A stretch of 41,109 bases of DNA, taken from positions 64,001 through 105,109 of IMG/VR virus record IMGVR_UViG_3300012933_000388; one strand, 5' to 3'. Origin of the DNA: a virus (Duplodnaviria > Heunggongvirae > Uroviricota > Caudoviricetes). Positions 7,357-41,109 of this stretch are shown here, piece after piece. The notes below the pieces were generated by a model. That model was not told the DNA's origin. It worked only from the letters and a program-made list of their open reading frames with translations, and did not search any database. Position numbers and translations under genes: made by a program. Every line of letters begins with the position of its first letter. Position 1 is the stretch's first letter.

Positions 7357-8337
7357 ATGGGAAGACCTCTTAAAATTCTGAGTTATGGTAGCGGCAACAT
7401 TTCGTTAAAGGAAATGTCGGATGCCGAAATCTACGACTCAATAGGATACCATGTCCTCAAAGCATTCGCTAGTACGCCAAGTGTTGGTAGTCTAGTGAGC
7501 CCTCAGGCTGGTGCAACAAACATCGGAAGCTTCGTCGATACATATCGGGTATCTCCTCCAGGCACTCACGACGGAACAGCAGCAAACATGACTTCGACTA
7601 CAGTAACAGTCGCGCAGCTGACTGGGTCTGTGACGGAAACATTTGTCCGGCCGGTTGGATGGACGTCGACGTTCATCGAGTCAATGTCGGATAGCGATAT
7701 CAATACATATATTATTGATCCTACAATCAATATAATGACCAACGGGGGACTTGGGTCATATTATATCAGCTCAACTACGCCAACCCACGTAGCAGGCGCT
7801 ACATGGACGCAGGCATTTGCAATAACCAACTACTCATATACCGGATCTAACCTTGGTAGTACGTATGTGTGGCAATTAACAAACCTCCCAGCTCCAGCCA
7901 ACCTATACCCTATCAAATGGAATGGTAGTAGCTCGCTCAGAGAGATTGACCAAACGACCATCAGACTGTTGGCTCAACGTTTACGTAATCGTATAATAAG
8001 TACTGGTCGTGGGACATATGCAGTGCAAGCATCTACACCTAGTACTGGTAGCTGGGCACAGATGGGTGCATCGTATGTTGATGATCGTCAAAGTACAACC
8101 AATGTTGGTTATACTGGAGCATACTCTGGCACATACGTAGGTGGATATACTGGGACATACTCTGGCACATATACCACATGGTATGGTGGTAGGGGTGTGA
8201 ACTCTACCGGATATTACACTGGTTATTATACTGGGTACTACACAGGGTATTATACTGGCAATTATGTTGGATTAACAGTCGCAGGCACAACGGAATCATT
8301 AGGTACTACAGCACGGCTGTGGGTACGTAGGAGTTAA
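7357..8337 (+). CDS. Putative virion protein with C-terminal Tyr-Thr/Ser-Gly repeat tract
   Basis: 326 aa; S/T/G-rich; ends with YTGAYSGTYVGGYTGTYSGTY...TGYYTGYYTGYYTGYYTGNYVG; lies in the structural operon. Confidence 0.7.
   Translation: MGRPLKILSYGSGNISLKEMSDAEIYDSIGYHVLKAFASTPSVGSLVSPQAGATNIGSFVDTYRVSPPGTHDGTAANMTSTTVTVAQLTGSVTETFVRPVGWTSTFIESMSDSDINTYIIDPTINIMTNGGLGSYYISSTTPTHVAGATWTQAFAITNYSYTGSNLGSTYVWQLTNLPAPANLYPIKWNGSSSLREIDQTTIRLLAQRLRNRIISTGRGTYAVQASTPSTGSWAQMGASYVDDRQSTTNVGYTGAYSGTYVGGYTGTYSGTYTTWYGGRGVNSTGYYTGYYTGYYTGYYTGNYVGLTVAGTTESLGTTARLWVRRS
8110..8271. repeat. 12-nt-period coding repeat (Y-x-G-x / TGYY) with varied synonymous codons
   Basis: For example gga tat tac act / ggt tat tat act / ggg tac tac aca / ggg tat tat act / ggc aat tat. 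Confidence 0.85.
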
Positions 8338-8340
8338 TAA

Positions 8341-8784
8341 ATGAAAACAATACAAGCCGTCGAGAAGCCAATTTGGCAGGACATCTCGACAAAAGATAGA
8401 ATTATTGCACGATTCGTGTATGATGATGGCAGCGCCAATGTCGTATCGTTTCCTGTCGATGACACCAATGACGATTATACTACATTCTCAACGTTCAGTT
8501 CGATAGAGGAAGTCGACACGAACACAGAAGAGGTTCGAGCTGAACAAGCTGCTGCAAGAGAGAAATCAATTGCACAGAACACAGAGAGAACTGAGCAGAA
8601 AAAATCTAACACTCTGTTCAATGCTAAGATTGAAGCATTCGAACATCCACTCGTTCAAGCAGCTCCAAAGGAGTGGAAGGCAATGATACGTAAGGCTACC
8701 ACAACTGTTGAGGTTGTTGCAGTTGTTGCGGCTTTGATTATTAAGAACGGTGAACCGAGTGCTACGTTGAGTGATGCAGAATAA
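8341..8784 (+). CDS. Hypothetical protein (147 aa), possibly a fibre-assembly/chaperone type
   Basis: Clean ATG 3 nt after the previous stop; N-terminal beta part (WQDISTKDRIIARFVYDDG), then charged helix and hydrophobic C-terminal helix. Confidence 0.65.
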   Translation: MKTIQAVEKPIWQDISTKDRIIARFVYDDGSANVVSFPVDDTNDDYTTFSTFSSIEEVDTNTEEVRAEQAAAREKSIAQNTERTEQKKSNTLFNAKIEAFEHPLVQAAPKEWKAMIRKATTTVEVVAVVAALIIKNGEPSATLSDAE

Positions 8785-9460
8785 TGGGTTTGTAATAATA
8801 GCAACAGTACATAGGAAGTACGTGCTGTCAGCAGCAAACCTTGCTGACTCTATTCGTGATTATTGGCCTGAAGCAAACATAACCATATACACGACGCCAG
8901 ATCTGTTGGATGGAGTTGATTTGAGTTCTGCAGATCAAGTCATTACCGATGGGGTACCGAGCGATCGTCGAGCTAAATTGTGGGCGCTGGGGAAGACGCC
9001 ATATGATATCACAGCATACTTGGACGCAGATACAGTAGTGGTATCGCCAGAGATTGTCAATATATTCGATCAGCTTGGTAATGACGATATCATCTTCACC
9101 AAGATTCGCAGATACAATTCGAATCCAAAAGGGTACCTCGATCATCCTGAGTATGTCCGACATGGGGGAGTGTTCGTATACAATAATAAGCCGGACACCA
9201 TTGCATTTATGGAACGATGGTGGGATCTGTGGTTGAATACCAGAAGCGCTGAGATATTCAACAAAACATACCCCGAATATCCAGATAAGATGAAGGAATG
9301 GGATCAGTTCTACCTGTTCTATCTTGCTACACATACCAACCACAACCTATCGTTAGGCTTCTTCGAGAACGACGCTAGGTGGAATTTTGTTACAGGATAC
9401 CTACGCAGCGAGCTTAACGGGACAGATCCAATAATTGAACACTACACAATAAAGATATAA
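8771..9460 (+). CDS. GT-A fold nucleotide-diphospho-sugar transferase-like protein
   Basis: TPYDITAYLDADT (DxD), GGVFVYN and WDQF motifs. Confidence 0.75.
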   Translation: MMQNNGFVIIATVHRKYVLSAANLADSIRDYWPEANITIYTTPDLLDGVDLSSADQVITDGVPSDRRAKLWALGKTPYDITAYLDADTVVVSPEIVNIFDQLGNDDIIFTKIRRYNSNPKGYLDHPEYVRHGGVFVYNNKPDTIAFMERWWDLWLNTRSAEIFNKTYPEYPDKMKEWDQFYLFYLATHTNHNLSLGFFENDARWNFVTGYLRSELNGTDPIIEHYTIKI

Positions 9461-10143
9461 TGATTTTTGCTAATAAGATTCCATCGGAGTTGCTGGATCA
9501 ACTGAATGATTTTAGCGATTGGTTCTTTGCTCAGTCGATTGAGAGTACAGTGGAGCTGCAGCCAAAGAAGCTTGACACAGAGTATGCCGTCAGCAATGAA
9601 TACCTAGAACTAATGAAGAGCCGCCCCGACAATGTGGGGTTTCCAGAAGAGTGCTATGGTGCTGATTTTAAAAACGTTGGTGTGTATGATACGGCCGTAT
9701 ATTTCGACCGAGTGCAAAAGCTAGACAAAGCACTAATGAATTTTACAGGTAGCCGCAACAACGCCCTCAAGATGTACTATCCGCCAGGGGGATACATAGG
9801 ATGGCATAATAATGCAAACGCTCCTGGATACAATATTCTGTTCACCTACAGCGAGACAGGTGATGGAGACTTTAGATACATTCACCCACAGACAGGTGAG
9901 TTGGTAATCATGCCAGACCGTAAGGGGTGGAGCTGTAAAGCTGGGTACTATGATATTGTAGATGGCAAACCACTTTGGCACGCAGCGCACACGAAGTGCA
10001 ATCGACTAAATTGGGCTTACATCATTCACCCTACTCTATGGGCCGATATGGCTGAGGAGTTGGGCATCGATGTTACAGCAGTATCTGATGTATTCGGGAG
10101 AGACCCACACAATGATGATGCGGCTGCAAAATTCTTTAGATGA
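9460..10143 (+). CDS. Cupin/DSBH (2OG-Fe(II)-oxygenase-like) protein
   Basis: YYPPGGYIGWHNN...NILFTYS...G.F.Y...LWHAA pattern; the first triad is HxN rather than the canonical HxD. Confidence 0.6.
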   Translation: MIFANKIPSELLDQLNDFSDWFFAQSIESTVELQPKKLDTEYAVSNEYLELMKSRPDNVGFPEECYGADFKNVGVYDTAVYFDRVQKLDKALMNFTGSRNNALKMYYPPGGYIGWHNNANAPGYNILFTYSETGDGDFRYIHPQTGELVIMPDRKGWSCKAGYYDIVDGKPLWHAAHTKCNRLNWAYIIHPTLWADMAEELGIDVTAVSDVFGRDPHNDDAAAKFFR

Positions 10144-10837
10144 TTGATTGAATCATCCGCACCTGTGGATTGAATTCATTACCCATCCACAACCAATCTT
10201 CTCCAAACTCCAACTGGTATAATGAATTATACTCAACCGCATGTTCGAAGTCGGCTGGTTTGCGAGCAAAGGCGTCATGTGGCTCAAAATACTTAATGAT
10301 GCCTCCATTATTCCTGATCGTCTCATCGACGAAATTCTGCTCTCCATTAACGGGTGGATGAGCCACTTGCAGATCGAGGATGTATCTTCTCATCCAGTAG
10401 GATGGGTTATCGTGGAATACATCTGGAATACACGTATGGTCACCACCAATGAACTTGTAGAGGCCTCCGTTAATAGTAAACCCCTTACCTTTGTATCTGG
10501 TCCACCACCGATATGGAGCAACTAGCTCATTGTTGTTGACGGGCGCATTGAATATATCTGTGACGTCACCAACGAACGTCCAATCTAAATCAGACACGAA
10601 ACATACCTGGCCCTTTGGGGCCATATTAAAGAAGTCGACCTTATGCCACTGCCTTCTTCCATCGTCGTTGCTTATAGGTATCACTTCGATGTGTTTGTCG
10701 AATGCGGCCTTGTCGTATGTGGTGTAGCAATGAACCTGTAGAGGTAAGTCTACGTGGTCCTGCAGCTGTCGGTGAAATCTCTCGACGTGTTGTGGAGTGT
10801 AGTTTGGCCCCGTACAGACTGTGTATACTGGAATCAT
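10136..10837 (-). CDS. GT-A-like glycosyltransferase
   Basis: VCTGPNYTPQHVERF, WHKVDFF, SDLDW (DxD), INGGLYKF and GEQNFV; same family as 11427-12104. Confidence 0.7.
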   Translation of the reverse strand: MIPVYTVCTGPNYTPQHVERFHRQLQDHVDLPLQVHCYTTYDKAAFDKHIEVIPISNDDGRRQWHKVDFFNMAPKGQVCFVSDLDWTFVGDVTDIFNAPVNNNELVAPYRWWTRYKGKGFTINGGLYKFIGGDHTCIPDVFHDNPSYWMRRYILDLQVAHPPVNGEQNFVDETIRNNGGIIKYFEPHDAFARKPADFEHAVEYNSLYQLEFGEDWLWMGNEFNPQVRMIQSII

Positions 10838-11430
10838 AGTTTTAGTATTGCAATCTGCGATGAATCAGGAATATCGAGAACCTCTATCCTACCCCAGTTG
10901 CAGTGGATGAACGCATCGATTGCTAATCTTGGTGATAATGAGGGATCGCCAGACTTTTCCTTAGAAGCATGTTTTGTATATTTCCAACGCGTTGCATCAT
11001 CGAGTAGCAACACACCCCCTGAACGGATCATCTGAAACGCTCTGACCACATCCTCTAGTACAGAGCTTGATGTGTGATCGCCATCGATGTATATGAAGTC
11101 GAATGTGTCTTTAATATCACACAACACATCTACAGATCTACACTCGTAAAACCTTACTTTATTTTTGTGATTACATTGATTGAGATTTTCAAGGAACCTA
11201 TCTTTAACCATGTCGAGTATTGTATCGTCGACTTCATAGTTTCCACGGAAGGGGTCGATTGCAATGTGCGATTGTATCGACGTGTAAGTGTCTAGCATCC
11301 AGAATGTAGTACGCCCCTCAAACACACCAATCTCCATAGTGCGGGCTGGACTGACGATGTACTTGTTGAATATGAATGTAATATTTTTGGTGCTGGCTTT
11401 AGACCAATCAACAATATAGTTGTAACTCAT
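10834..11430 (-). CDS. Class I SAM-dependent methyltransferase (Methyltransf_24-like)
   Basis: MEIGVFEGRTT, FDFIYIDGDH and GGVLLLDD. The ATG at 11430 (ATGA overlap with the upstream stop) is preferred over the TTG at 11436. Confidence 0.88.
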   Translation of the reverse strand: MSYNYIVDWSKASTKNITFIFNKYIVSPARTMEIGVFEGRTTFWMLDTYTSIQSHIAIDPFRGNYEVDDTILDMVKDRFLENLNQCNHKNKVRFYECRSVDVLCDIKDTFDFIYIDGDHTSSSVLEDVVRAFQMIRSGGVLLLDDATRWKYTKHASKEKSGDPSLSPRLAIDAFIHCNWGRIEVLDIPDSSQIAILKL

Positions 11431-12104
11431 ACCCAATATTCTTTCACCAATATATCATCAGGCACATCAGTCTGCTTAGGATATCCGTGAAATATACAAA
11501 CGTCATATAGTGGGCGATGTTTAAATTTGACCGAATCACATAAGTCGGCGCCACGACGGTACGAGTATACTACGCCGCGGGGTAAAGTATCCACTTTCAT
11601 CTTCTCGTGCCATAAGAAACGGTCGACGCCTTTATATGTCGCCATGTGCTTCTCAGGATCTTGTATGAAGTAATCGTAAATCTCAGAGGCATCTTTCCAG
11701 ATCATAATACTGGAGTTGTACATCGTGTTGCGTTCTTGCCAGTCGGATAGAATGATAGGATCTTTCCAATACGCCATGCATACAGTAAGGTTGTCTGAAG
11801 CTAATTCGAATAGACGATCGATCTCGCCGTGAATTATAACATCAAGATCGAACAACATCTTAACATCATGTTGTTGTAATCTGGGGTGAACAAGTAATGG
11901 AATTTTGAACCACCACGTTTCAAATTCGTCAGCAGACTCGATTGGTATGATGTGGATGGATTGATCGATCCCGGTAGGGTCATCTGTGTAGCAATAAATA
12001 GGGGTGAGGGGGTTACCCCAACGCCGAAGCATCGAAGCTAATTTGTTGACATACTCGGCCGAATATTTCTGGCCCCACTTCAGGCAGACATAGCAATTGT
12101 TCAT
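11427..12104 (-). CDS. GT-A-like glycosyltransferase
   Basis: CLKWGQKYSAEYVNKL, WWFKI, FDLDV (DxD), YNSSIMIW, GVDRFL and FHGYPK. Confidence 0.75.
   Translation of the reverse strand: MNNCYVCLKWGQKYSAEYVNKLASMLRRWGNPLTPIYCYTDDPTGIDQSIHIIPIESADEFETWWFKIPLLVHPRLQQHDVKMLFDLDVIIHGEIDRLFELASDNLTVCMAYWKDPIILSDWQERNTMYNSSIMIWKDASEIYDYFIQDPEKHMATYKGVDRFLWHEKMKVDTLPRGVVYSYRRGADLCDSVKFKHRPLYDVCIFHGYPKQTDVPDDILVKEYWV
11993..12000 (+). promoter_or_regulatory. Possible late promoter (AATAAATA) for the radical SAM operon
   Basis: ATAAATA core about 130 nt upstream of ATG 12127, inside the opposite-strand gene. Confidence 0.45.
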
Positions 12105-12126
12105 ATTATAATGTTTTGAGGAATGT

Positions 12127-13164
12127 ATGTATATTTATCGCGATGGATTAGAATCAATGCACATCGAGCTTACAAATAAATGTAACGCTAGATGTCCCCA
12201 ATGCTCACGAACCAACAACCCGCTGGTTGAAGATAACCAGGTCGAGATCACCCTACAGCAATTTAAGCAATATTTTGATGGTGAGTTCATACGTGGGCTG
12301 AAGAAGATTAAGTTCTGTGGAAACTTTGGCGATCCTGCCATGGCTAAAGACTGCATCGCAATACATCAGTATATTGTCGATTGCAATCCAGACATTAACT
12401 TATCCTTCGACACAAATGGTGGAATCAGAACAACGACATTCTGGAAACAGCTCGGTGCATTTTACATCGGCAAGCGTGAGAGTTACATAATCTTTCATAT
12501 CGATGGTATGGAAGATACAAACCATATCTACAGGGCAGACGTGAGCTTCTCGAACGTGATGAAGAACGCAAAAGCCGCCATATCGACAGGGGCGCAAGTG
12601 GTGTGGGCATTTATTCCATTCATGCATAACGAACATCAAGTCGAAGAGGCAGAAGCATTATCGAAGCAGATGGGATTCTTTAAATTTGCAGTCAAGATCA
12701 GTTCGAGATTTGAACACAAGCTACACCCATTCTCATACAAAGATTCTAAGACCGGTCTGACTAAACAGATATACCCAGCAACGTCCTCTGAGTTTAACGT
12801 CACGGAGCTACTAGCAAACTTAGACAAGCCTGTGTGTACGGCTGAGAAGAGAAAAGAGATATATGTGGATGCTAGAGGTCGAGTCTTACCATGTTGTTGG
12901 TATGGGTCTGGATATGAGACGAATAGCGACTTCCGTCATGCAGTTGATGGGTGCCATACGCCAAACCTCGAAAGCACTCCTGTCAAACAGGCAATTACTA
13001 CCCCATTGTTCCATAATATCAAGGCATCATGGGACACCCCGGAAAATGTACTAAACAAGCCATGCTATAAAAAATGTAGTGGCAAGCTGATGCATTTTTG
13101 GCTGATCGATGGCACTATCACACCTCAAAAGAACTACACTGAGTGGTTGAGGGAAGAGTTGTGA
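12127..13164 (+). CDS. Radical SAM protein with C-terminal SPASM/Twitch-type Cys motifs
   Basis: CNARCPQC, FCGNFGDP and TNGG; auxiliary cluster motifs C...IYVDARGRVLPCCW and C...CYKKC. Confidence 0.92.
   Translation: MYIYRDGLESMHIELTNKCNARCPQCSRTNNPLVEDNQVEITLQQFKQYFDGEFIRGLKKIKFCGNFGDPAMAKDCIAIHQYIVDCNPDINLSFDTNGGIRTTTFWKQLGAFYIGKRESYIIFHIDGMEDTNHIYRADVSFSNVMKNAKAAISTGAQVVWAFIPFMHNEHQVEEAEALSKQMGFFKFAVKISSRFEHKLHPFSYKDSKTGLTKQIYPATSSEFNVTELLANLDKPVCTAEKRKEIYVDARGRVLPCCWYGSGYETNSDFRHAVDGCHTPNLESTPVKQAITTPLFHNIKASWDTPENVLNKPCYKKCSGKLMHFWLIDGTITPQKNYTEWLREEL
12132..12138 (-). promoter_or_regulatory. Probable late promoter (gATAAATAt on the minus strand) for the GT-MTase-GT operon
   Basis: TATTTAT on the plus strand, about 28 nt upstream of the minus-strand ATG at 12104. 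Confidence 0.6.
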
Positions 13165-13748
13165 TTTATACACATACGGTGGGATCGGTCACCGCTACTA
13201 TATCTGATAGTATGACCAGCGACTTCCAATTCTTAATGGAAGGTGCAGCTGCTGAGGGAGCTACTGAGTATTCACGGCTCGAGCTTGGGGGGAAGTATGA
13301 GTATAGTGTCGTAATGTCATACAATGATATCCCATATGGATTTTTCCTTATGTGCAATGGAGGACGATATGCTCCCGATGTGTTAAGGGTATACACTAAG
13401 CTGTATACGATTCCACAATTCAGATCAGCTGCCGGCATCGGCCGATATCTATTACCAACAGATACAGCAATTGGAGTGACCTACACCTCACATAGCATCA
13501 TTGCAAACTTTGTTGAGGACGTCTTACCATCAGCAGGGGTGGGGCCTTACAACTTCTATTTTTACTCACGAGCACCCAATGATACTACAATTGTGTCTTT
13601 GATGAATAAATTCGCAAGAGTGAAATGGAATGTGTCCGATGACCGACTATACTTTGTGGGCAAGAAGGAAACAAATCCACAAAGTTGGAAGCACATCATA
13701 TACAAGGGTGACCTATCAAAGTTCACCCAGCCATCTAAGGCTATCTGA
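13161..13748 (+). CDS. Hypothetical protein with a GNAT-like acyltransferase motif
   Basis: GTG at 13161 (GTGA overlap, upstream gaggga RBS) is preferred over 13143. LYTIPQFRSAAGIGRYLL resembles GNAT motif A. Confidence 0.5.
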   Translation: MIYTHTVGSVTATISDSMTSDFQFLMEGAAAEGATEYSRLELGGKYEYSVVMSYNDIPYGFFLMCNGGRYAPDVLRVYTKLYTIPQFRSAAGIGRYLLPTDTAIGVTYTSHSIIANFVEDVLPSAGVGPYNFYFYSRAPNDTTIVSLMNKFARVKWNVSDDRLYFVGKKETNPQSWKHIIYKGDLSKFTQPSKAI

Positions 13749-14445
13749 CCTTCTTATCGAGAAGCCTTACTATCGCTGCTCCCAAATCCCACTTACCAAA
13801 CACTGGGTCTCGTGGATGTGTGTGATGATGGTCGTGGTATGTTTCTCCAGCAAGTAGCCATGAAAGATATGGACGGCTGATTGCCTTCCCGTCCTTGTGG
13901 CCGAGATAGTTTACAGACGCTTGACCAAGAAACCCATACGTGTTAATGATCGTCCAAGACATTGGACCAAACAATATACACATCACAATAAAACCTACAA
14001 GAGCGATTGGAAGATAATACTTCATCTGTGCTTGGTATAGCGGATTGCGTAGATTTGTTTTATTGGCATATGCCATGTTGAAATCGTAGTATGCAATCAT
14101 CAGGTTGGCCCAGATACCTTTGTGAGGTCCATGTGGGTCCTTATCTGTGTCGACGTATCGGTGATGTTTGTTGTGAGTCGCAGCCCATGATAATACTTGC
14201 GTAAAGGCAAATGCAGCACCAAGGCTGAGAAACATTACCTCTGCCCACTTAGGACACTCCCAAGCATAATGAGTGACGAATCTGTGATAATATGCAGACA
14301 CAACACCTGCCACCACAATCATCCCAACGACGAACCACACCAAGTATACCCATTGTGGATCGACTACGATATTATACAGCGTGTATAATGCGCTAGCAAA
14401 AAATATCGTTTGCTGAATAATCTTTTGTATCCATGTTGGGATCAT
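13741..14445 (-). CDS. Membrane fatty acid desaturase (delta-9/DesC-OLE1-like)
   Basis: Three His boxes YYHRFVTH, HNKHH..D...DPH and GETYHDHHH; hydrophobic TM segments. Confidence 0.9.
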   Translation of the reverse strand: MIPTWIQKIIQQTIFFASALYTLYNIVVDPQWVYLVWFVVGMIVVAGVVSAYYHRFVTHYAWECPKWAEVMFLSLGAAFAFTQVLSWAATHNKHHRYVDTDKDPHGPHKGIWANLMIAYYDFNMAYANKTNLRNPLYQAQMKYYLPIALVGFIVMCILFGPMSWTIINTYGFLGQASVNYLGHKDGKAISRPYLSWLLAGETYHDHHHTHPRDPVFGKWDLGAAIVRLLDKKVR

Positions 14446-15251
14446 ATGTTCGCCTCATAGTTCAGCTCAATGCCGAATTCGCGAAGACTCTCTTTGGCCT
14501 TCCAGTAGTTATCTCCGGAGACACACTCCATCATTGCATCCTTGTCGGTCCACATAAAATCATAAACTCTGCTAGAAGGCGTGTTGCTGCCTTTGCACCC
14601 ATACACCTTCTTTGTTTTATAGAACGCTTCGTTCATAAACGGCATCATAAAGTTTTGTTCGATTGTTGACCTTATATCTTGTATTCCATCAAAACGGCTT
14701 AGTATATCACTATTTGTGTAGTCATACTCTACTCGTAAACCATACGTCTTTGTCGGGGCTAAGTTATCACATGCATATTCAGTCATAATAAAATGCGTAC
14801 GTGATTCGATGCCTCCGTTGACTGCAGTGTGGTGTGCTTCAGCTGAGTTGATTTGTCGAATTCTACCATCTGCGGGTAAATGATACCCACGTTGCTTATC
14901 ATAATCATAATAGAAACTGCCACGATTCTCAATCACCGATAGATGATACTTGTTATCGGGATCGTTGTGATGACGCAAGCAGAAGCCAGCTGGTAATATA
15001 ATGAACACAGATCGGTTCATAAGGAACGGCATCTCTTCAATCACCCGCTCGAACACAGTACCGTTTAGTATAGGGTTAATGATGGGCCGATGGAAGTATG
15101 TGTAGTCTTCAAACTCTGGATTTTCAGCAAAGCATGCTTGTAATATTCCATTGCGCGCAACATGCGGGAGGATCTTTGTCTCCCAGTCGTGCTTGACCTC
15201 CATTGGATCATACCGATACTCGCCAAATAATTGTACAGACTCGTGCATCAT
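14442..15251 (-). CDS. Asp/Asn beta-hydroxylase-family (2OG-Fe(II)) oxygenase with an extra C-terminal domain
   Basis: LPAGFCLRHHNDPDNKYHL...HLPADG...INSAEAHHTAVNGG..SRTHFI (HxD...H...R). Confidence 0.7.
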   Translation of the reverse strand: MMHESVQLFGEYRYDPMEVKHDWETKILPHVARNGILQACFAENPEFEDYTYFHRPIINPILNGTVFERVIEEMPFLMNRSVFIILPAGFCLRHHNDPDNKYHLSVIENRGSFYYDYDKQRGYHLPADGRIRQINSAEAHHTAVNGGIESRTHFIMTEYACDNLAPTKTYGLRVEYDYTNSDILSRFDGIQDIRSTIEQNFMMPFMNEAFYKTKKVYGCKGSNTPSSRVYDFMWTDKDAMMECVSGDNYWKAKESLREFGIELNYEANI

Positions 15252-15445
15252 ACTCTAGTTCTCACTGATGAATTGTGGGCGGATGTAGGCAATGAAAAGT
15301 CGTATGCAGCAAACTTATCTTCGTTCAATCGTTTGATGAGATCTTCGAATGCGGCTGTTTGAGTCGGCCCTGTACCCATATACACTTTATCGGATGAGCG
15401 GATCAGCGCCATCGTCTTTCCGTTGTGTGTGGAATATTTTATCAT
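15248..15445 (-). CDS. Small hypothetical protein (~65 aa)
   Basis: Packed between fabF-like and oxygenase genes; ATG at 15445 is preferred over the TTG at 15460; no ACP DSL motif. Confidence 0.55.
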   Translation of the reverse strand: MIKYSTHNGKTMALIRSSDKVYMGTGPTQTAAFEDLIKRLNEDKFAAYDFSLPTSAHNSSVRTRV

Positions 15446-15446
15446 T

Positions 15447-27324: not shown

Positions 27325-27352
27325 ACAGAAAAAGATTAACAGGACTCCCAAC

Positions 27353-31243: not shown

Positions 31244-31247
31244 AATT

Positions 31248-33870: not shown

Positions 33871-33877
33871 AGCAATA

Positions 33878-35608
33878 ATGCACCGCATAACCACACTCAA
33901 TGAGAAGAAGATACACTCCCAAAATGGTGAAGATGGTATCATTGATTATATTTTTGCTGCTATAGGAGCAACGAATAAGGTTGCAGTTGAAATCGGTGTC
34001 TCAGTAACTTCAACAGACCAGCAGGGAAACTATATCTCCAATCGGTTGGAAAACAACACAGCTGCGTTGGCGGAGAAAGGCTGGGAGCTGTATTGGTTTG
34101 ATATAATCGACCCCTTTGTGACGCCAAGTAATTGTACCTTCACCAACAAGTTTTTAACGAAAGACAATATCGTCGGTTGTTTCGAGCAAAACGGTATACC
34201 GAAGGAATTTGATCTATTATCGATCGACATCGATAGCAACGACTACTACCTGAGGGATGCTCTGAGAGGGTATTCGCCGAGAGTTGTTGTATTAGAGTAT
34301 AATGGTTGTTTCGACGGAAGTGCCGAACATATTATGCCATATAATGAAGATTATGTCTGGTCGGGTGATAGAGAGTATGGGGCCAGCTTAAAGTCACTCA
34401 CCAATCAAGCCGAAGAACTAGGGTACGATTTAGTGTATTGTGAGAAGAATGGAGTCAATGCTTTCTTCATACGTAAAGACGTTAACACATTCAAGTCGCT
34501 AACCTCTGAAGAGGCTTGGGTTAAGTTGTGGTGGGCGAGGAGGACAGGAGATCGAGGATCTCTGAACAACGTTTATAGTAGCGTTCTACAGAGACTGATC
34601 ACAGACGATGAATATGAAACGTATAAAGATATCGATATCGGGCAGGTGAAAGATATCCTGATCGACACGCCGGAATACAAAACCCTAAATTCAAAAAAGC
34701 TGAGTGCCATATCTCCTCAAATCACTTTTCCATATACAATTATGGCGGTCAACGATAGAGCTTCTCTTAACACGGAGAGAACAAAGAGCATTATACCGAC
34801 AGAGTTTATAAGTGACATCGAATTCGTCAATGGTAATGCCGCTGATATGCAATCGTATTTTAATAATAACGGTATAAAGATAACTTGGGATGAGGCGGTT
34901 TGGGAGAGAAAGCCTCTACCTGGTGAATTGGGATGTGTGGCTAGCCATCTAAACTGCCTGAAGTATATTGTCGAGAACAACATACCAAATATGTTGGTGA
35001 TTGAAGATGATGCGGTATTGGATGAAAACTGTTTAAGTATCCTGAACAATTGCTACAACGATCTACCGGAAGACTATGACTTCTTGGTGAACATGACTGA
35101 TCTTTGGGTAGGAGAGCACTTCGTTAAAGTTACTGAACCCACGTTGATAGGTTCACAGTTCATCAGTAAATCGTATCTAGTAAACTCGAGCACTATGATG
35201 ATGTTGTATTCATATAGCGGTGCTAAGAAAATTCTCGAGGCATATAAGACATATGGTGTATACACTCCCATCGATTTGTTCCTCCTTGATATGAGTCGAG
35301 ATCATGTATTGAATGGGTATTCGACTTTCTTCAGCAACCCGCTGGCCAAGTTTGGACAACAGTATGGGTCGATCATTGACCCTACCGATGTTAGAAAAAA
35401 TTATGCTGATATGGCAGACTTACCATGGGCTCAGGACAAGGAGAGATTCAATGGCGTATTGACTCTATATGAAAGCCTATTGGGTAGGCCAGCCGATAGA
35501 ACAGGAGCGCACTACTATGTGACGTCCGATTTCACCTTGCGAGAAATTAAGAACATACTCCTGAATTCGGATGAATATGTAGAGCGCCGTAAAACTGAAA
35601 GACAATAA
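33878..35608 (+). CDS. Fusion: FkbM-like methyltransferase + GT25 glycosyltransferase + DUF4214-like helical repeats
   Basis: ATG at 33878 preferred. SQNGEDG, VEIGV, FDLLSIDIDSND and PRVVVLEYN (FkbM-like); PGELGCVASH and LVIEDDA (GT25); LYESLLGRPAD..G..YY...S.EY. Confidence 0.85.
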   Translation: MHRITTLNEKKIHSQNGEDGIIDYIFAAIGATNKVAVEIGVSVTSTDQQGNYISNRLENNTAALAEKGWELYWFDIIDPFVTPSNCTFTNKFLTKDNIVGCFEQNGIPKEFDLLSIDIDSNDYYLRDALRGYSPRVVVLEYNGCFDGSAEHIMPYNEDYVWSGDREYGASLKSLTNQAEELGYDLVYCEKNGVNAFFIRKDVNTFKSLTSEEAWVKLWWARRTGDRGSLNNVYSSVLQRLITDDEYETYKDIDIGQVKDILIDTPEYKTLNSKKLSAISPQITFPYTIMAVNDRASLNTERTKSIIPTEFISDIEFVNGNAADMQSYFNNNGIKITWDEAVWERKPLPGELGCVASHLNCLKYIVENNIPNMLVIEDDAVLDENCLSILNNCYNDLPEDYDFLVNMTDLWVGEHFVKVTEPTLIGSQFISKSYLVNSSTMMMLYSYSGAKKILEAYKTYGVYTPIDLFLLDMSRDHVLNGYSTFFSNPLAKFGQQYGSIIDPTDVRKNYADMADLPWAQDKERFNGVLTLYESLLGRPADRTGAHYYVTSDFTLREIKNILLNSDEYVERRKTERQ

Positions 35609-35609
35609 T

Positions 35610-36194
35610 ATGAGTTTTTGTATAAAGGATGGGTACAACCATCGAACCCAAGAGCTGTATTTCGATGATACAGGTCTAAAGGATGAGTGGCAGAAAGAAG
35701 TGTATCAATACGCTCACGACGTTGCTGAACAAAATCAATATCAGACTATCATGGATTTTGGATGTGGGTCAGCATTCAAGCTGCTTGATAATTTCAAAGA
35801 TTACAACACCATCGGAATAGACTTGCCGCAGACTGTGGAGTATCTACAAAACACTTACCCAGAACGAACATGGTCGTCCGCGCTTGAGGTGCATCATAAT
35901 GTAGACATTCTTATAGCGTCAGATGTGATCGAGCATATGGTAGATCCAAATGTATTGATTGATTACATTAAAGCATGTTCTCCTAAAGAGATCATATTAT
36001 CGACGCCCGATAGAGACCTCGTTGTCGAATACCTTGGGGGTTCTGCTGATGGCCCTCCTCACAATGGGTGGCACGTACGAGAGTGGAATCGCCGTGAATT
36101 TATTAAATACATAGCCCAGCACTTCAATATTTTGAATCATATTATAACCAATAAGCAGCAAGCTACGCAGCTTATACATTGCAGGATGCGTTAA
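35610..36194 (+). CDS. Class I SAM-dependent methyltransferase
   Basis: IMDFGCGS, DILIASDVIEH, ILSTPDR and HVREW. Confidence 0.85.
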   Translation: MSFCIKDGYNHRTQELYFDDTGLKDEWQKEVYQYAHDVAEQNQYQTIMDFGCGSAFKLLDNFKDYNTIGIDLPQTVEYLQNTYPERTWSSALEVHHNVDILIASDVIEHMVDPNVLIDYIKACSPKEIILSTPDRDLVVEYLGGSADGPPHNGWHVREWNRREFIKYIAQHFNILNHIITNKQQATQLIHCRMR

Positions 36195-36195
36195 C

Positions 36196-36969
36196 ATGGA
36201 AGATAAAATTATATTAGTGACTGGTGGTTTTGATCCAATTCACTCAGGTCATATTGCATACATTAAAGCTGCCAGGGAACTTGGCCGCGTAATGGTGGGA
36301 GTAAACAGCGACGCATGGCTGCAACGCAAGAAGAGCTCAGCGTTCATGCCCTTTGAGGATCGCAAGGCGATTGTTCAGAACCTCAAAGACGTCATGGGCG
36401 TAATCGAATTCGATGATTCGGATAATACAGCAATCGATGCAATTAAGCAAGTCCGCAAAATGTTTCCAAACAACAGGATCGTGTTTGCAAATGGTGGTGA
36501 CCGCACATCAGCAAACATTCCGGAAATGGAAGCGTTCAAAGATGATCCATCTGTTGAATTTGTGTTTGGTGTTGGTGGTGATACCAAAATGAACTCGAGC
36601 TCTACTATCTTGGATAAATGGAAAAATGAGCAGGTAGACCGCGGTTGGGGATATTATCAGACGTTCTTTAAGAATGCAGATTCCACAGTAAAGCTGAAAA
36701 GATTGGTACTCAAACCAAAACACAAGATCAGTATGCAATTACATAATAGCCGATCCGAGCTGTGGTTTGTAGAGTCTGGAAACGGCAATCTAAACACTAT
36801 AGAGGACGGCAAACTCAAGGTAGTATCTACCCTGGGACCTTTGGAGTTGGTAAATGTGGAATCCAAGCAAATCCACCAATTGGAAAACACCAGCGATACA
36901 AAAGACTTGATCGTTGTGGAGATCCAATATGGCGATTATTGTGACGAAAGCGACATTATCCGCCTGTAG
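36196..36969 (+). CDS. Cytidylyltransferase-like nucleotidyltransferase (RfaE-II/TagD family) fused to a mannose-6-P-isomerase-type cupin
   Basis: TGGFDPIHSGH (HxGH), GVNSDAWL, FANGGDR and GGDTKMNSSS; C-terminal RGWGYY, SMQLHNSRSELWFV and VEIQYG. Confidence 0.9.
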   Translation: MEDKIILVTGGFDPIHSGHIAYIKAARELGRVMVGVNSDAWLQRKKSSAFMPFEDRKAIVQNLKDVMGVIEFDDSDNTAIDAIKQVRKMFPNNRIVFANGGDRTSANIPEMEAFKDDPSVEFVFGVGGDTKMNSSSTILDKWKNEQVDRGWGYYQTFFKNADSTVKLKRLVLKPKHKISMQLHNSRSELWFVESGNGNLNTIEDGKLKVVSTLGPLELVNVESKQIHQLENTSDTKDLIVVEIQYGDYCDESDIIRL

Positions 36970-36986
36970 TGTGGAAATCTGTTAGG

Positions 36987-36993
36987 ATAAATA
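36987..36993 (+). promoter_or_regulatory. T4-type late promoter (gATAAATA)
   Basis: Intergenic, about 33 nt before ATG 37027. Confidence 0.75.
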
Positions 36994-37026
36994 CTCCAGA
37001 ATAATAATTACAAACACTGGTGTACG

Positions 37027-39180
37027 ATGACCTCCAAAGCCTCACAATTATCCGCATTTATTGCTGTAGCTAATACTGTAGCGATGGCATCTTTGCCCGC
37101 CGGCGCAACGTTTGCGTCTTCGTCTGATATAACGTCAGCCGTCGATACTGCATATGCCAATGCGGTTTCTGGTGTGAGCGCTAATGCAGCAACTGCGTAT
37201 AGCAACGCTACCAGCTATGCGGATATGGTAGCTGCGACAGCATACTCGAATGCTGTATCTCATGCTGTTTCGAATACATACGTCAATTCTACGTTTGCGC
37301 CCACTATCAACCCAACGTTTACAGCGAATGCTACCGTATCTGGCGGATTGGTAGCAAACACAATTGCTGTATCTAACTATATCGATTTCGCAAACAACGC
37401 CACAGCTCCTACTCAAAAAGAAGGTCGTGTATTTTACGATCAGAGTTCGAAAACGCTAGCATACTATGTTGCTGAACCTGATGTAACCCTTAACATAGGT
37501 CAAGAGAGTTGGATTCGCGTATATAATGCTTCTGGAGCTGATGTCCCTAACGGCGCGCCTGTAAGGTTCGCAGGAGCATTGAATGGTGTGCCTACTATCC
37601 AATTAGCAAGTGCTTCCACGCTTGCGGGCGTTACGTGGATTGGTGGTGTGGCGACGCATTCCATAGAAAACAGCTCATATGGGTATGTTTCCAATTTTGG
37701 CCGAGTTAATGGTGTTGACCTTTCTGCGTTCGATGTTGGTGATCCGGTGTATGTTTCAACGACACCAGGAGGATTGACTAAAGTTGCACCAACTGCGCCC
37801 AACTATCCAGCACTTGTTGGTGGGGTCGTTGCTAATGGTACCAGCGGTACTATCCTTGTCAAGATCGAGCCATATGAATATGCAACGCTGCGTGTGACTG
37901 GCGATGCTAGATTCGATGGCACATTAACGGTTGCCGGTAACCTGAACATTCTTGGCAACACGACGTCAACGTCAGTATCAAGCATAGAAGTGTCCAACAC
38001 GATGATATACTTGAATGGCGGCAACCAAACATCAAACAATGCTTTTGTTGGGGCTGGACTGAATGATGCAACGCTCGCAGGCCACCTTCAATATAGCAAC
38101 ACAACCACATTCTATATAAAGATCGACAGCGTTGGTGCAACTGATACGTTTGCCTGGTCGACTGACGACTTTGCAACGACCCGAGCATCGAACGTCGCTA
38201 TTACCGGCAGTAGTCAGTGGGTTGGTGGTGGATTGTTGGTGGCGTTTGGCTCGACCACTGGGCACACACTGAATGATAAGTGGTCAGCGACTCTTGCCCC
38301 AGTAAACGTCGATGCTGGTGTTGTATCTAATTACCATACCGGTGAGAATGGCGTATACACTCATACGGGGTATTTCCGTGATGCGTCTGATGGCAGATTC
38401 AAGTTCTTCGCTGGATACACCCCAGAACCAAACACGAGTATCAACATTGCTCATGCATCGTTTGCTTTTGCTGACATACAAGCAAATGTGTTCTACGGCA
38501 CATTGAGTGGTAATGTAATCGGTAATGCAGATACTGCGACAGCTGCAAACAATGCATTATATCTTGGCGGCCAAGCCGCAAGCTACTACGCTAATGCCGC
38601 GGCTCCTGGGACAGCATATTCCAACGCAGTATCTACAGCTAGTACTGATGCATCTTCTAAAGCAGCAACTGCCTATTCGAACGCGGTTGCATACGCTGCG
38701 GCCAACACATACGTTAATACGCAGCTTGCCCTCAAAGCTAACTTAACAGGAGCAGCATTCACTGGCGCTGTATCTGGTATCACTACTCTTGCTGCTGGTA
38801 ATACTAGTATTACAGGTACTATCACGGCTACTGGCGACATCACGGCGTTCTACTCAGATGCAAGATTGAAAGACTTCAAGGGCACAATTCCGGACGCTCT
38901 TGCAAAAGTTCATGCGTTGAATGGATACTACTATGTTGGTAATGCAAAAGCTGGAGAGTTAGGATATGATACTACAATTATGCAAGTCGGTGTGTCTGCA
39001 CAGGAAGCTGAAGTTGTAATACCAGAGATTGTTGCTCCGGCTCCAATCAGTGCTGAGTATCTAACAGTCAAATATGAAAAGTTCGCTCCGCTGTTGATCG
39101 AAGCTATCAAAGAGGTTGATAATAAGTACCAACAGCAGATAACAGATCTCCGCGAAGAAATTGCAAGACTGAAGGGGTAA
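37027..39180 (+). CDS. Tail fibre (717 aa) with C-terminal intramolecular chaperone (peptidase S74)
   Basis: GDITAFYSDARLKD, GVSAQE, YEKFAPLLIEAIKE and terminal coiled coil; shares AYSNA and HTGYFRDASDG modules with the other fibres. Confidence 0.9.
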   Translation: MTSKASQLSAFIAVANTVAMASLPAGATFASSSDITSAVDTAYANAVSGVSANAATAYSNATSYADMVAATAYSNAVSHAVSNTYVNSTFAPTINPTFTANATVSGGLVANTIAVSNYIDFANNATAPTQKEGRVFYDQSSKTLAYYVAEPDVTLNIGQESWIRVYNASGADVPNGAPVRFAGALNGVPTIQLASASTLAGVTWIGGVATHSIENSSYGYVSNFGRVNGVDLSAFDVGDPVYVSTTPGGLTKVAPTAPNYPALVGGVVANGTSGTILVKIEPYEYATLRVTGDARFDGTLTVAGNLNILGNTTSTSVSSIEVSNTMIYLNGGNQTSNNAFVGAGLNDATLAGHLQYSNTTTFYIKIDSVGATDTFAWSTDDFATTRASNVAITGSSQWVGGGLLVAFGSTTGHTLNDKWSATLAPVNVDAGVVSNYHTGENGVYTHTGYFRDASDGRFKFFAGYTPEPNTSINIAHASFAFADIQANVFYGTLSGNVIGNADTATAANNALYLGGQAASYYANAAAPGTAYSNAVSTASTDASSKAATAYSNAVAYAAANTYVNTQLALKANLTGAAFTGAVSGITTLAAGNTSITGTITATGDITAFYSDARLKDFKGTIPDALAKVHALNGYYYVGNAKAGELGYDTTIMQVGVSAQEAEVVIPEIVAPAPISAEYLTVKYEKFAPLLIEAIKEVDNKYQQQITDLREEIARLKG

Positions 39181-39183
39181 TAT

Positions 39184-39726
39184 ATGGCATTACCATCTAG
39201 TGGCTCGCTTTCATTTTCACAGATCAACGTAGAACTTGGCCGATCGGCAACTGCTCAGCTGAGCATGAACGACTCTGGTGTGAGGGGGCTGTTTGGGGTT
39301 GCGTCCGGTCGGATTGGTATGAATGATGGGCGGGGTAAGTCGTCGGCCTTTGTTTTCAACCAGACTATTGCTACCAATACTGCCAATTATGACTTGCGCG
39401 CCGCTGCAGTATCGGCAGGGTGGAATCAGACGACACCACTTAATGCTACCGTGACGATCAACTCTGGCGTGTATGTATATTCTGGTAGCACGGGGTCGTA
39501 TGCATTCGTAACAGGCACTACGTTCCCAGCCGGCAGTGTTTTGTCGTTGATAAATAACGGCACAATCGTCGGCCGCGGTGGTGATGGTGGTACTGGTGGT
39601 AATGCATCTACAGGCTTTGGTGGCGGCGGCGGTGGCCCAGCGTTGTATGCTGGTTATGCACTCCGCGTAACAAACAACGGCCGAATCGCTGGTGGCGGTG
39701 GCGGCGGCGGTGGTGGTGGTAGCTAA
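39184..39726 (+). CDS. gp38-like fibre-tip adhesin, apparently C-terminally truncated (180 aa)
   Basis: MALPSSGSLSFSQINVELG N-terminus; NYDLRAAAVSAGW, LINNGTIVGRGGDGG and NNGRIAGGGGGGGGGS-stop; only about 3 Gly-rich motifs. Confidence 0.7.
   Translation: MALPSSGSLSFSQINVELGRSATAQLSMNDSGVRGLFGVASGRIGMNDGRGKSSAFVFNQTIATNTANYDLRAAAVSAGWNQTTPLNATVTINSGVYVYSGSTGSYAFVTGTTFPAGSVLSLINNGTIVGRGGDGGTGGNASTGFGGGGGGPALYAGYALRVTNNGRIAGGGGGGGGGGS
39550..39556 (+). promoter_or_regulatory. Possible internal late promoter (gATAAATA) for the desaturase and radical SAM genes
   Basis: About 190 nt upstream of ATG 39746, but it overlaps the conserved LINNG codons. Confidence 0.3.
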
Positions 39727-39745
39727 TCTTAACTTTGAGGCAGTG

Positions 39746-40603
39746 ATGTCATTTTTTCGTTATTCTAAACTCGATTCCCTTTTAGTATTATACGCCCTAG
39801 TAGCATGTATTGCTCCCTTTGCAGTAGCTAGTATCGACAGTTGGATGGTGTGGGTCTTGTTGGCCCCCCTCCAAGCGATCTTTAACGTCATCGTGATGAA
39901 TACATGCATGCACCATCACGTGCACACTCCCATCTTCAAAAACGATCGACTCAATCGCATGCATGAGTTGCTCACCACATTGGCTGTCGGAATACCATTC
40001 CAGTCGTGGAAGTGGTTTCACCTAACACACCACAAATATAACAACGATTTAAAGAAGAATGATGTAGTTCACGATCCAGTGTCATTCTATAGATTCAGCG
40101 AACCGGGCGTAAGAGAAAATGTATGGCTGTATTGTGTGTATGGCGTTTGGCGGGATCTCGTAGGAATCACGTCTACAGACCCATCATGTACTAACCAGGT
40201 GCGTATAAGCAACCCCGGTCGTCTACGGACAGAGATATGGTTATATGGTTTGTGGTTCCTAGCTCTGTTGACATATAATGTATGGTATGGTATATTCTAT
40301 GTGTTAGTGTATTTGATGAGTTTGGTACTTAACCAGGCGAACAGCTATGGTGAACATTATCTGGCCGTTGACCCTACAAACTTCAGGTCCGATTCAGTGG
40401 GGTGTTATGCCTGGTGGTTTAACTTTTTCTGTTTCAACTCAGGATACCACCAAGAACATCACATACGTCCAGGCGTACATTGGACCAAGTTACCAGAACT
40501 GACGTTTAGCTTGCCATCTAATAGGCACACTATTGCAGGAATGTATATGTTCAACATTCCGTGGGCCGCCGACCTTAAAGAATTGATATGGAGTAAGAAG
40601 TGA
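39746..40603 (+). CDS. Membrane fatty acid desaturase family protein
   Basis: ATG 39746 with gagg RBS (the GTG at 39692 is an artefact of Gly codons); His boxes MHHHVH, HLTHH and YHQEHH; TM segments. Confidence 0.88.
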   Translation: MSFFRYSKLDSLLVLYALVACIAPFAVASIDSWMVWVLLAPLQAIFNVIVMNTCMHHHVHTPIFKNDRLNRMHELLTTLAVGIPFQSWKWFHLTHHKYNNDLKKNDVVHDPVSFYRFSEPGVRENVWLYCVYGVWRDLVGITSTDPSCTNQVRISNPGRLRTEIWLYGLWFLALLTYNVWYGIFYVLVYLMSLVLNQANSYGEHYLAVDPTNFRSDSVGCYAWWFNFFCFNSGYHQEHHIRPGVHWTKLPELTFSLPSNRHTIAGMYMFNIPWAADLKELIWSKK

Positions 40604-41109
40604 GATATAGCAAGTTTGAGACGGATGGTGGTATTGTATTTTACTATGACAACATTACCAATAACATTCTAGAGCAGGACGGAACGCCCATATTTGAGAT
40701 GTTAGCTGATCCGACGTATGAGTCATTTGCGAAGCAAACATACTCATCTAGATCAAAGTCCCGTGCACCGACAGCTATCAGGTTGTTGATGGGACATGCT
40801 TGTAACTTCTCTTGCGCATATTGCATGCAGAAGGATATTGGCAACCCAGATGAACTACCAAAGAACAAAGGACTGCAATTGTTGTTCGAATCGGTCCGCG
40901 ACAATCTTGATACATCTAACTTGCAGCGAGTTGAATTGTGGGGAGGTGAGCCGTTTCTATACTGGAACGATATGGTAGAAATAATGACATTCTTCGATTC
41001 GCCAGCCATGACGTTCGGAATTACTACCAACGGATCTGCCCTTTCTGCAAAGCATGCCCAGTTCTTTGGTCAGCTACAGGGCCATGTAATTGTAACAATA
41101 TCACATGAT
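40600..41109 (+). CDS. Radical SAM protein (anSME/SPASM-maturase-like), 3'-truncated; absent from the ORF track
   Basis: GTG 40600 overlapping TGA; my translation MRYSKFETDGG...GHACNFSCAYCMQ...ELWGGEPFL...ITTNGS...TISHD is open to the window end. Confidence 0.9.
   Translation, partial: MRYSKFETDGGIVFYYDNITNNILEQDGTPIFEMLADPTYESFAKQTYSSRSKSRAPTAIRLLMGHACNFSCAYCMQKDIGNPDELPKNKGLQLLFESVRDNLDTSNLQRVELWGGEPFLYWNDMVEIMTFFDSPAMTFGITTNGSALSAKHAQFFGQLQGHVIVTISHD

Follow-up and report, generated by a model that had tools for sequence, protein, structure and literature searches.

The presence of sugar-, methyl- and lipid-modifying enzyme genes among the tail fibre genes of an uncultured phage raises the question of what these enzymes act upon: the virion, the envelope or lipids of the host, the phage DNA, or no common target at all. 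The question is posed here for a stretch of 41,109 nucleotides (the window, to which all positions refer unless stated otherwise), which forms the final 41 kb of the 105,109-bp linear viral contig IMGVR_UViG_3300012933_000388 (positions 64,001 to 105,109) and carries about 18 recognisable enzyme genes of these kinds between its fibre genes. The original prediction for this DNA had read about 20 interleaved tailoring enzymes as one system that places glycan, methyl and possibly acyl groups on the fibres; its gene order and coordinates match the open reading frame (ORF) map, and its gene count is close to the one obtained here. The window is the host-recognition (fibre) cluster of a freshwater T4-like phage, and its enzymes are best divided into a glycan set, for which we tentatively favour the phage's own fibres as acceptor, and a lipid set that more likely acts on host lipids and not on the virion.

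The affiliation of the phage is revealed by T4-type baseplate genes upstream of the window, which encode hub, tube cap and gp6-, gp7- and gp8-type wedge proteins. The gp6 homologue is 34-40% identical to those of Caulobacter phage Cr30, Sinorhizobium phage phiM12, Stenotrophomonas phage DLP6, cyanophages and pelagiphage HTVC008M, and judged by this distance the phage represents an uncultured, deep-branching lineage within the T4-like phages. Freshwater metagenomes share small fractions of the contig's sequence words, a hint of freshwater origin. Against GenBank phage records, megablast with the enzyme blocks gave no DNA-level match, and tblastn with the GT4 and FabF proteins described below gave nothing close (at most about 30-36% identity, mostly to contaminant or unannotated records).

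The original prediction counted eight glycosyltransferase (GT) domains, and all eight have some support from hidden Markov models (HMMs), fold, paralogy or a lead in the ESM Atlas. The genes w10136 and w11427 match the phrog_1962 glycosyltransferase (E 3e-9 and 1e-10), the N-terminal domain of w29711 matches PF04488/GT32, including its DXD (E 3e-12), w32063 matches GT4 (E 1.5e-32), and the C-terminal domain of w33845 matches GT25 (E 1e-13). An AlphaFold2 model of w29711 (13-sequence alignment, pLDDT 85) consists of two GT-A domains, with Foldseek matches to Och1, LH3, LARGE1, Mimivirus R699, SetA, glycogenin and alpha-3GalT, and w31248 is a paralogue of the C-terminal GT-A domain (47% identity). 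In the ESM Atlas both w8771 and w31248 are placed among viral PF03407/GT8-like clusters with neighbours that are 91-100% viral; for w8771, this lead is what suggests a GT. A DxD motif is present in every GT-A domain, none of the GTs of the window has a membrane segment, and a search among viral contigs found no relatives of the GT4 protein. HMM matches also identify w10834, w33223 and w35610 as class-I methyltransferases. These are three of the four methyltransferase domains claimed previously; the fourth, the N-terminal domain of w33845, was considered as an FkbM domain and set aside after no significant match was obtained and a local profile gave no link to the FkbM proteins of related loci. 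Finally, w36196 is a fusion of a CTP_transf_like domain with a cupin of the mannose-6-phosphate-isomerase type, as had been proposed; its best NCBIfam match, below the cut-off, is to rfaE domain II.

The placement of promoter-like motifs suggests that most of these enzymes would be expressed together with the fibres. Late promoters of T4, which depend on gp55 and gp33, consist of TATAAATA at -10 without a -35 element. In the entire contig there are just two exact copies of TATAAATA, and their number in the window (2) does not exceed the chance expectation (2.5); both copies (16616 and 27317), however, are intergenic and lie 29-32 nt 5' of fibre-type starts. The first base of the box is G as often as T, GATAAATA being found at equivalent upstream places, and the consensus is therefore KATAAATA. 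Across the 105 kb, ATAAATA is depleted (13 copies against about 27 expected), and nine of these 13 lie no more than 60 nt 5' of a start on the same strand (binomial P 9e-11). In the related genome G001, described below, 22 of 37 copies lie just 5' of starts (P 4e-19) and the orthologous boxes are conserved. An eight-base A/T box that precedes structural starts by 20-60 nt and is rare elsewhere resembles the T4 late promoter, from which it differs in accepting G or T equally at its first base.

Fourteen of the approximately 18-19 enzyme genes stand in units headed by such boxes, in which genes overlap or lie no more than 28 nt apart, and for these units we infer late transcription from the motifs. 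The giant fibre 1 (1..6347, plus strand; 2188 aa in the full contig, beginning 219 nt ahead of the window) comes after the wedge genes gp6/7/8 of the baseplate and has GATAAATA 59 nt 5' of its ATG; its unit extends via overlapping genes to the GT-A-type candidate w8771 and the oxygenase-like w9460 (8771..10143, plus). The minus-strand operon of GT w11427, methyltransferase w10834 and GT w10136 (12104-10136; 10136..12139 with its box) has a late box of its own, in agreement with the original prediction: GATAAATA at 12132-12139, 28 nt 5' of the ATG and kept in G001. On the plus strand, TATAAATA at 16616 heads a fibre assembly protein (16655-16984) and fibre 2 (16990-23370), and GATAAATA at 23387-23394 heads fibre 3 (23450-27316). 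The next box, TATAAATA at 27317-27324, heads the Mtd_N-type fibre w27353 and the DUF5122 beta-propeller w28477 (27317..29682, plus), followed by the seven-gene glycan block (29711..36969, plus) of w29711, w31248, w32063, w33223, w33845, w35610 and w36196; the largest intergenic gap in 27353-36969 is 28 nt, within the 30 nt that had been claimed. Beyond it, GATAAATA at 36986-36993 heads the S74-chaperone fibre w37027 and the gp38-like adhesin w39184 (36986..39726, plus), and GATAAATA at 39549-39556, inside the adhesin gene, lies ahead of desaturase w39692 and radical S-adenosylmethionine (SAM) protein w40600 (39692..41109, plus). Matches to Mtd_N, S74, gp38 or fibre-assembly families occur in five or six of the fibre-type genes. 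In line with the earlier statement that the enzymes lie mostly downstream of late promoters, late boxes thus head the units of these fourteen genes; they are lacking in two groups: no recognisable late box was found for the FabF-hydroxylase-desaturase operon (13741..16568, minus), and the pair w12127/w13143 (12127..13748, plus) has only a sigma-70-like TATAAT upstream. Terminator-like hairpins show no excess in the window. A search for RNA runs containing 27300-37000 gave none.

The largest glycan block also behaves as a unit in evolution. G001 (IMGVR_UViG_3300048625_000299), recovered by a FabF search, is a complete 234,864-bp genome with terminal repeats and is syntenic with the contig from the early region through the baseplate. 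It keeps all genes of 6344-16984 in order, as well as the adhesin, the second desaturase and the second radical SAM, with amino-acid identities of 59-87% for the enzymes and 42-60% for most fibre parts, fibre 1 being the exception (80%). The segment 27353-36969, however, is entirely absent from G001, where only a late box stands between fibre 3 and an S74 fragment. In the window this 9.7-kb segment (27317-36986: late box, Mtd_N fibre, propeller and seven enzymes) is flanked by the late boxes at 27317 and 36986, and the identical nine-gene order is found on the Logan contigs L051 and L052, in which the two-domain GT is 84% identical. Because the block is missing from G001, bounded by late boxes and intact in L051/L052, it behaves in these sequence comparisons as a mobile, promoter-headed cassette of fibre, propeller and glycan genes. 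The TATAAATA intergenic region (27287-27356) is nearly identical to L051:4700-4770, up to the Mtd_N start codon, while the proteins of the two lineages share about 84% identity. Late-promoter regions may serve as the recombination joints at which cassettes are exchanged, an arrangement analogous to the PeSL early-promoter cassettes of T4-type phages.

Together with this pattern of presence and absence, the shuffling of fibre modules makes the region hypervariable. Comparison of the window (16990-39180) with G001 (189139-198970) shows that w37027 corresponds to two genes of G001: its N-terminal part to the C-terminal part of fibre 2, and its S74 chaperone end to a separate gene of 305 aa. G001 also carries an extra QueC-like (PP-loop) gene at 181687-182313 (L023:1687-2313), placed between its counterparts of w9460 and w10136. 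Past the second radical SAM, further genes code for a 2-oxoglutarate (2OG)-Fe(II) oxygenase, a third radical SAM and a C1q-like protein, and the enzyme-rich region therefore continues past the point at which the window ends.

The distribution of the two-domain GT that opens the glycan block is informative as well. Its family comprises at least 241 full-length cluster representatives (44-84% identity), some labelled 'OCH1-like' by JGI, all of them on metagenomic contigs of no more than 174 kb, and a pattern scan of limited sensitivity found no such two-domain GT in 185,579 bacterial and archaeal genomes. Seventeen viral loci with the gene, some of them near-duplicates, correspond to 15 distinct contigs, of which 14 could be scored on the upstream side (L039 begins at the GT). 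In all 14 the GT lies directly 3' of fibre-type genes rich in N/S/T/G on the same strand and opens a run of 5-12 enzyme-sized genes; in six of them one short protein (about 210-240 aa) of unremarkable composition separates the fibre-type genes from the GT. An upstream fibre-type gene contains a w27353-like segment in nine distinct contigs, and the one scanned (L029) has an Mtd_N N-terminus; the C-terminal domain of w27353 is also present on six contigs too short to show whether the GT follows. The content of the related blocks is variable, including GT25, GT2 and GT11 enzymes, FkbM methyltransferases, a hexapeptide acyltransferase, a carbamoyltransferase, sulfotransferase-like and acetyltransferase-like enzymes, UDP-glucose dehydrogenase and epimerases, along with the same nucleotidyltransferase-cupin and a w12127-like radical SAM. 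Several enzyme genes in these blocks have their own intergenic TATAAATA 7-31 nt upstream.

This conserved arrangement bears on the possibility that the region is a hyperplastic dumping ground of unrelated enzymes whose products are soluble or small molecules, for instance a glycolipid, a modified nucleotide-sugar or a compound resembling secondary metabolites. The known hypervariability of such regions (PMC7029224) and the mixture of enzyme classes would be in keeping with that account, as would the best structural relative of w14442, a nucleoside-antibiotic hydroxylase, and the extra QueC-like gene of G001. However, the order of fibres, two-domain GT and variable enzymes is kept in all 14 scorable contigs, the genes are packed in operon-like fashion under late boxes, and the whole block from 6.5 to 16.6 kb is syntenic in G001, all of which makes the absence of a common target improbable.

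DNA is a further conceivable target, given that T4-like phages classically glucosylate hydroxymethylcytosine (hmC); the GTs would then glycosylate modified bases, as do the T-even alpha- and beta-GTs and the arabinosyl-hmC transferases, and the QueC-like gene of G001 could be viewed in the same light. The families found here (GT4, GT25, GT32 and GT-A) are nevertheless not of the T4 DNA-GT type, and PF00303, the thymidylate-synthase family that includes hydroxymethylases of the ThyA/gp42 type, was found in neither the contig nor the complete G001 genome although control genomes matched. A late-box context would be unfit for enzymes needed in replication, and an oligosaccharide is the product to be expected from so many GTs and methyltransferases. 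We consider DNA hypermodification very improbable.

If the product is an oligosaccharide, the choice lies chiefly between the fibres and the host envelope. In the reading that we favour, the glycan set (eight GT domains, three methyltransferases, the sugar-nucleotide-type nucleotidyltransferase-cupin, and probably the double-stranded beta-helix (DSBH) hydroxylase and a radical SAM) comprises soluble proteins that would be transcribed late with the fibre genes from gp55-type KATAAATA promoters and would build a methylated oligosaccharide in the cytoplasm. The two-domain GT w29711 would start or anchor this glycan and the variable downstream enzymes would elaborate it. T4-type virions assemble in the cytoplasm, and the fibres, as structural proteins of the phage produced there at the same time, would be the most likely acceptor. 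This reading, drawn from the sequence, is held at somewhat less than even confidence.

Alternatively, the soluble GTs and methyltransferases could modify nascent lipopolysaccharide (LPS) core, O-chain or a lipid-linked glycan at the inner face of the inner membrane, and the MsbA, Wzx or ABC export systems of the host would carry the altered product to the surface, where it would exclude competing phages or stop progeny from sticking to debris. The GT11 enzymes, UDP-glucose dehydrogenase and epimerases of the related blocks do resemble O-antigen clusters. Nevertheless, the phage is lytic and its boxes are of the late type, and pre-existing surface LPS would persist; outer-membrane LPS is not replaced in a non-growing infected cell, and late cytoplasmic GTs would consequently be poorly placed to mask receptors. 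By hydropathy, which was the sole means of detection, no Wzx-, Wzy-, WecA- or WbaP-like protein is found among the 327 proteins of the 15 distinct related blocks (no flippase, polymerase, ligase or priming GT), and the window likewise lacks the proteins of eight or more membrane segments, or large multi-membrane proteins, that would mark an O-antigen, capsular polysaccharide or exopolysaccharide cluster. For want of priming and export genes, de novo synthesis of an exported polysaccharide is unlikely as well. Furthermore, the head GT family was found only on phage-sized contigs and not as a gene recently acquired from a host, and the block is inherited with one particular fibre. Taken together, these points make envelope remodelling somewhat unlikely, if a serious contender.

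Several observations weigh against the fibres and must be set beside those above. No evidence for the fibres as acceptor emerged from this sequence analysis, and literature searches for a glycosylated T4-like virion turned up none. Adjacency to fibre genes could merely reflect a hyperplastic region. The contig is estimated to be only 43% complete, and two of the boxes (12132 and 39549) lie within coding sequence, where the protein code could explain their conservation. The GT25, GT4, GT8/PF03407-like and rfaE-domain-II-like proteins belong to families of the LPS-core and O-chain type, and because core GTs are soluble and need no co-clustered exporter, missing export genes do not exclude LPS. 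Modification of the host O-chain or envelope is also the published interpretation of this architecture (PMC7029224, PMC12801897, PMC1079782).

An argument from N-x-S/T sequons, put forward in the original prediction, proved to be of no help in this matter. Fibre 2 contains 107 sequons against 67 expected (z 6.2), but these fall within its tandem structural unit; enrichment is weak in fibre 3 and in the gp38-like adhesin (z 2.3 each) and ranges from z 2.9 to 4.4 in the three fibres of G001. As strong enrichment is confined to the repeat-built fibre 2 and the window contains no N-glycosylating enzyme of the oligosaccharyltransferase or N-glycosyltransferase type, the sequons were set aside as evidence for glycosylation.

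A possible chemical link to a protein acceptor is suggested by the fold of w9460 (9460-10143, plus). Its family has more than 146 clusters, none annotated in Pfam, and its model (pLDDT 92) is a DSBH fold whose nearest relatives are protein prolyl hydroxylases. Residues H116, N118, H174 and R182 are invariant, giving a metal motif of HxN...H (plus R) in place of the usual HxD/E...H. Standing beside the GT-A candidate w8771 and behind w7357 with its Tyr/Thr/Gly repeats, the modelled enzyme suggests a chemistry of hydroxylation followed by glycosylation; collagen-like or Pro-rich acceptor tracts were sought in the fibres and none was found. The other oxygenase of the original prediction, w14442, matches the alpha-ketoglutarate (aKG)-dependent beta-hydroxylase Cpz10 (7v4f; E 1e-8), so that both members of that pair have support. 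Both radical SAM proteins, w12127 and w40600, carry the CX3CX2C motif; w12127 has in addition a C-terminal Cys cluster (SPASM/twitch-like), and w40600 is cut by the window end, its counterpart in G001 being 464 aa in length.

The lipid-type genes are a separate matter. The minus-strand operon at 13741..16568 consists of FabF-like w15447, a 70-aa ORF, the aKG beta-hydroxylase-like w14442 and the desaturase/hydroxylase-like membrane protein w13741. Matches to PF00109 and PF02801, and a Cys (ACATG) and two His (HGTST and GH) that align to the solved KAS II 4ls5, point to a member of the KAS family, although the score against the FabF equivalog TIGR03150 (250 bits) falls short of the cut-off (494). 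No acyl carrier protein (ACP; PP-binding protein) was found in a search of the contig and G001, and w15447 would have to use the ACP of the host. The 70-aa ORF between the FabF and hydroxylase genes was considered for this role and is not an ACP. FA_desaturase matches with His boxes support w13741 and w39692, the latter with three His boxes, as desaturases, and both are integral membrane proteins. The FabF, the two desaturases, the two radical SAMs and the cytidylyltransferase-cupin of the original prediction were all borne out by family matches and motifs.

FabF-type ketosynthases of 32-39% identity also occur on at least seven other uncultured phage contigs (L007-L013), in four of which a desaturase/hydroxylase-like gene is the neighbour, and the combination of FabF and desaturase looks like a recurrent phage lipid module. 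The FabF gene stands two genes after a fibre-like protein in L012/L013 and among small non-structural genes in L007-L009. Desaturases encoded by cyanophages have been described as auxiliary genes for host lipids (Roitman et al. 2018, PMC5776448); there, too, T4-like aquatic phages carry membrane desaturases with three His boxes, but the window combines a desaturase-like gene with a FabF-type ketosynthase and an aKG hydroxylase. No literature on such a FabF in a T4-like phage turned up, though no specific search was made. On account of the desaturase precedent, the recurrence of the module away from fibres and the lack of a late box at the FabF operon, the lipid set (FabF, the beta-hydroxylase-like w14442 and the two desaturases) more likely acts on host lipids than on the virion. 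It would remodel host fatty acids by elongation, unsaturation and hydroxylation, acting on host acyl-ACP and membrane lipids.

The full version of the original prediction, in which FabF, hydroxylase, desaturases and radical SAMs likewise act on the fibres, has some points to recommend it: these genes are nested between fibre genes and kept as a block in G001 at 59-87% identity, the pairing of prolyl-hydroxylase-like w9460 with a GT-A protein recalls systems that hydroxylate and then glycosylate, and in L012/L013 FabF lies close to a fibre-like gene. However, integral-membrane desaturases are ill suited to soluble fibre substrates, and phage desaturases are documented as host-lipid genes (PMC5776448). 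Neither genome has an ACP, neither the FabF operon nor the w12127/w13143 pair has a late box, and FabF in L007-L009 keeps non-structural company. An acyltransferase also lacks support, since the gene previously called GNAT-like, w13143, gave empty results in Pfam, NCBIfam, PHROGs, the Atlas and a PDB profile search and is unverified as a GNAT. Acyl groups on the fibres are accordingly the weakest part of the original prediction, and we rate such an integrated decoration system as quite improbable, a little more so than a region without any common target.

How much of this is new becomes clear from comparison with described systems. The host recognition cluster (HRC) of pelagimyophages and cyanomyophages also interleaves fibre genes with GT and LPS-type genes (Zaragoza-Solas et al. 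2020, PMC7029224). As in the HRC, a large hypervariable region follows the structural core of a T4-like aquatic phage, and the fibre genes of the window, adjacent to the baseplate genes, are interleaved with GTs (GT8-type and others), an rfaE-like gene and sugar-nucleotide genes. The window differs in its freshwater lineage, with a gp6 only 34-40% identical to those of Cr30, phiM12 and HTVC008M, and in the addition of FabF, two desaturases, two radical SAMs and two oxygenase-like proteins. Modification of the host O-chain was inferred in that study without an analysis of promoters or cassette boundaries (PMC7029224). Cyanomyoviruses carry up to 13 GTs and 22 cell-wall genes (PMC12801897), and S-SCSM2R, S-SCSM1 and P-SSM2 resemble the window as T4-like phages with many GTs (up to 13), a cytidylyltransferase and sugar epimerases (PMC12801897, PMC1079782). 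Their sets include Kds, PgaA and epimerase genes that are absent from the window, and their function is described without experimental test (PMC12801897; Sullivan et al. 2005, PMC1079782). The earlier suggestion that the system is richer than any known for T4-like phages was therefore overstated, the 13-GT, 22-gene cyanomyoviruses and the pelagimyophage HRCs having already been published.

More distant systems provide a rationale for glycosylation of the virion. The likeness to mycobacteriophages lies in phage GTs and methyltransferases beside structural genes and in the proposed logic of cytoplasmic glycosylation of virion proteins; in mycobacteriophage siphoviruses, glycans have reportedly been demonstrated on capsid and tail tube C-termini with one to few GTs. 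In the present case, by contrast, the presumed acceptors are myovirus fibres and the enzyme set is far larger; the adjacency of GTs to structural genes and their shared late-box units can be read directly from the DNA. Multidomain GT/methyltransferase enzymes of the A064R type in chlorovirus PBCV-1 and the fibril gene clusters of Mimivirus are virus-encoded and build methylated glycans on virion surface proteins. These giant viruses share with the window soluble multidomain GT or GT-methyltransferase proteins, sugar-nucleotide enzymes and clade-specific gene sets, but they infect eukaryotes and the homology is limited to the level of the GT-A fold (TM-scores 0.2-0.3 over two domains). The interleaved layout of fibres and GTs is thus already published for related aquatic phages. 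What is new are the KATAAATA statistics, the late-box-bounded cassette with its natural presence/absence pair, the two-domain GT family that heads such blocks and was found only on phage-sized contigs, and the distinction between a glycan and a lipid module; these elements do not settle the target of the enzymes.

Further genes of the window are of interest in relation to the fibres. The stretch behind fibre 1 (6344..8784, plus) holds a 72-aa coiled-coil ORF, w6543, w7357 and w8341, none with a family match, and these genes are probably co-transcribed with fibre 1, because their starts overlap or nearly abut the preceding stops. The 72-aa ORF (6344-6562, plus), unlisted before, has a coiled-coil C-terminus, overlaps the fibre 1 stop and the w6543 start, and shows 94% DNA conservation in G001; what looks like a gap of 195 nt behind fibre 1 is for this reason read as coding, and the product of the ORF may be a fibre chaperone or linker protein. 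The AATAAATA at 6401, considered as a promoter for w6543, lies within this conserved ORF and was not counted. Both w6543 (267 aa, N/T/G-rich) and w7357 (7357-8337, plus; 326 aa) are fibre-like in composition. The latter ends in a Tyr/Thr/Gly tract with GYYT four times in tandem, and its homologue in G001 is 42% identical over the first 250 residues. The family of w8341 (147 aa) is unassigned and its composition is not N/S/T/G-rich. At the other end of the window, the adhesin w39184 (39184-39726, plus) is 180 aa long, and its G001 counterpart is of exactly the same length with 72% identity; this equality marks the short form as conserved and, as far as the two sequences tell, not a recent truncation.

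The implications depend on the target. Among the most abundant viruses are the T4-like myophages that infect SAR11, cyanobacteria and freshwater bacteria, and their fibre regions are rich in 'LPS-type' genes. The cassette offers a compact test case in this regard: 9.7 kb with one fibre, one propeller and seven enzymes behind a single late promoter, along with a natural relative that lacks it. If the host surface is the target, the window would be an ordinary new example of a published architecture. If the virion is the target, a hidden glycan layer would underlie the host range of these phages, the stability of their particles and their recognition by grazers or antibodies, and a class of genes now presumed to be auxiliary metabolic genes would have to be reinterpreted. 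With a confidence slightly lower again than that given to fibre glycosylation in this phage, we suggest that aquatic T4-like phages may widely glycosylate their own fibres, a w29711-type GT priming the glycan and swappable late-promoter cassettes building lineage-specific structures that would be methylated and, elsewhere, also carbamoylated, sulfated or acetylated. The 'LPS genes' of pelagimyophages and cyanomyophages would in that event be genes of the virion coat rather than of the host surface.

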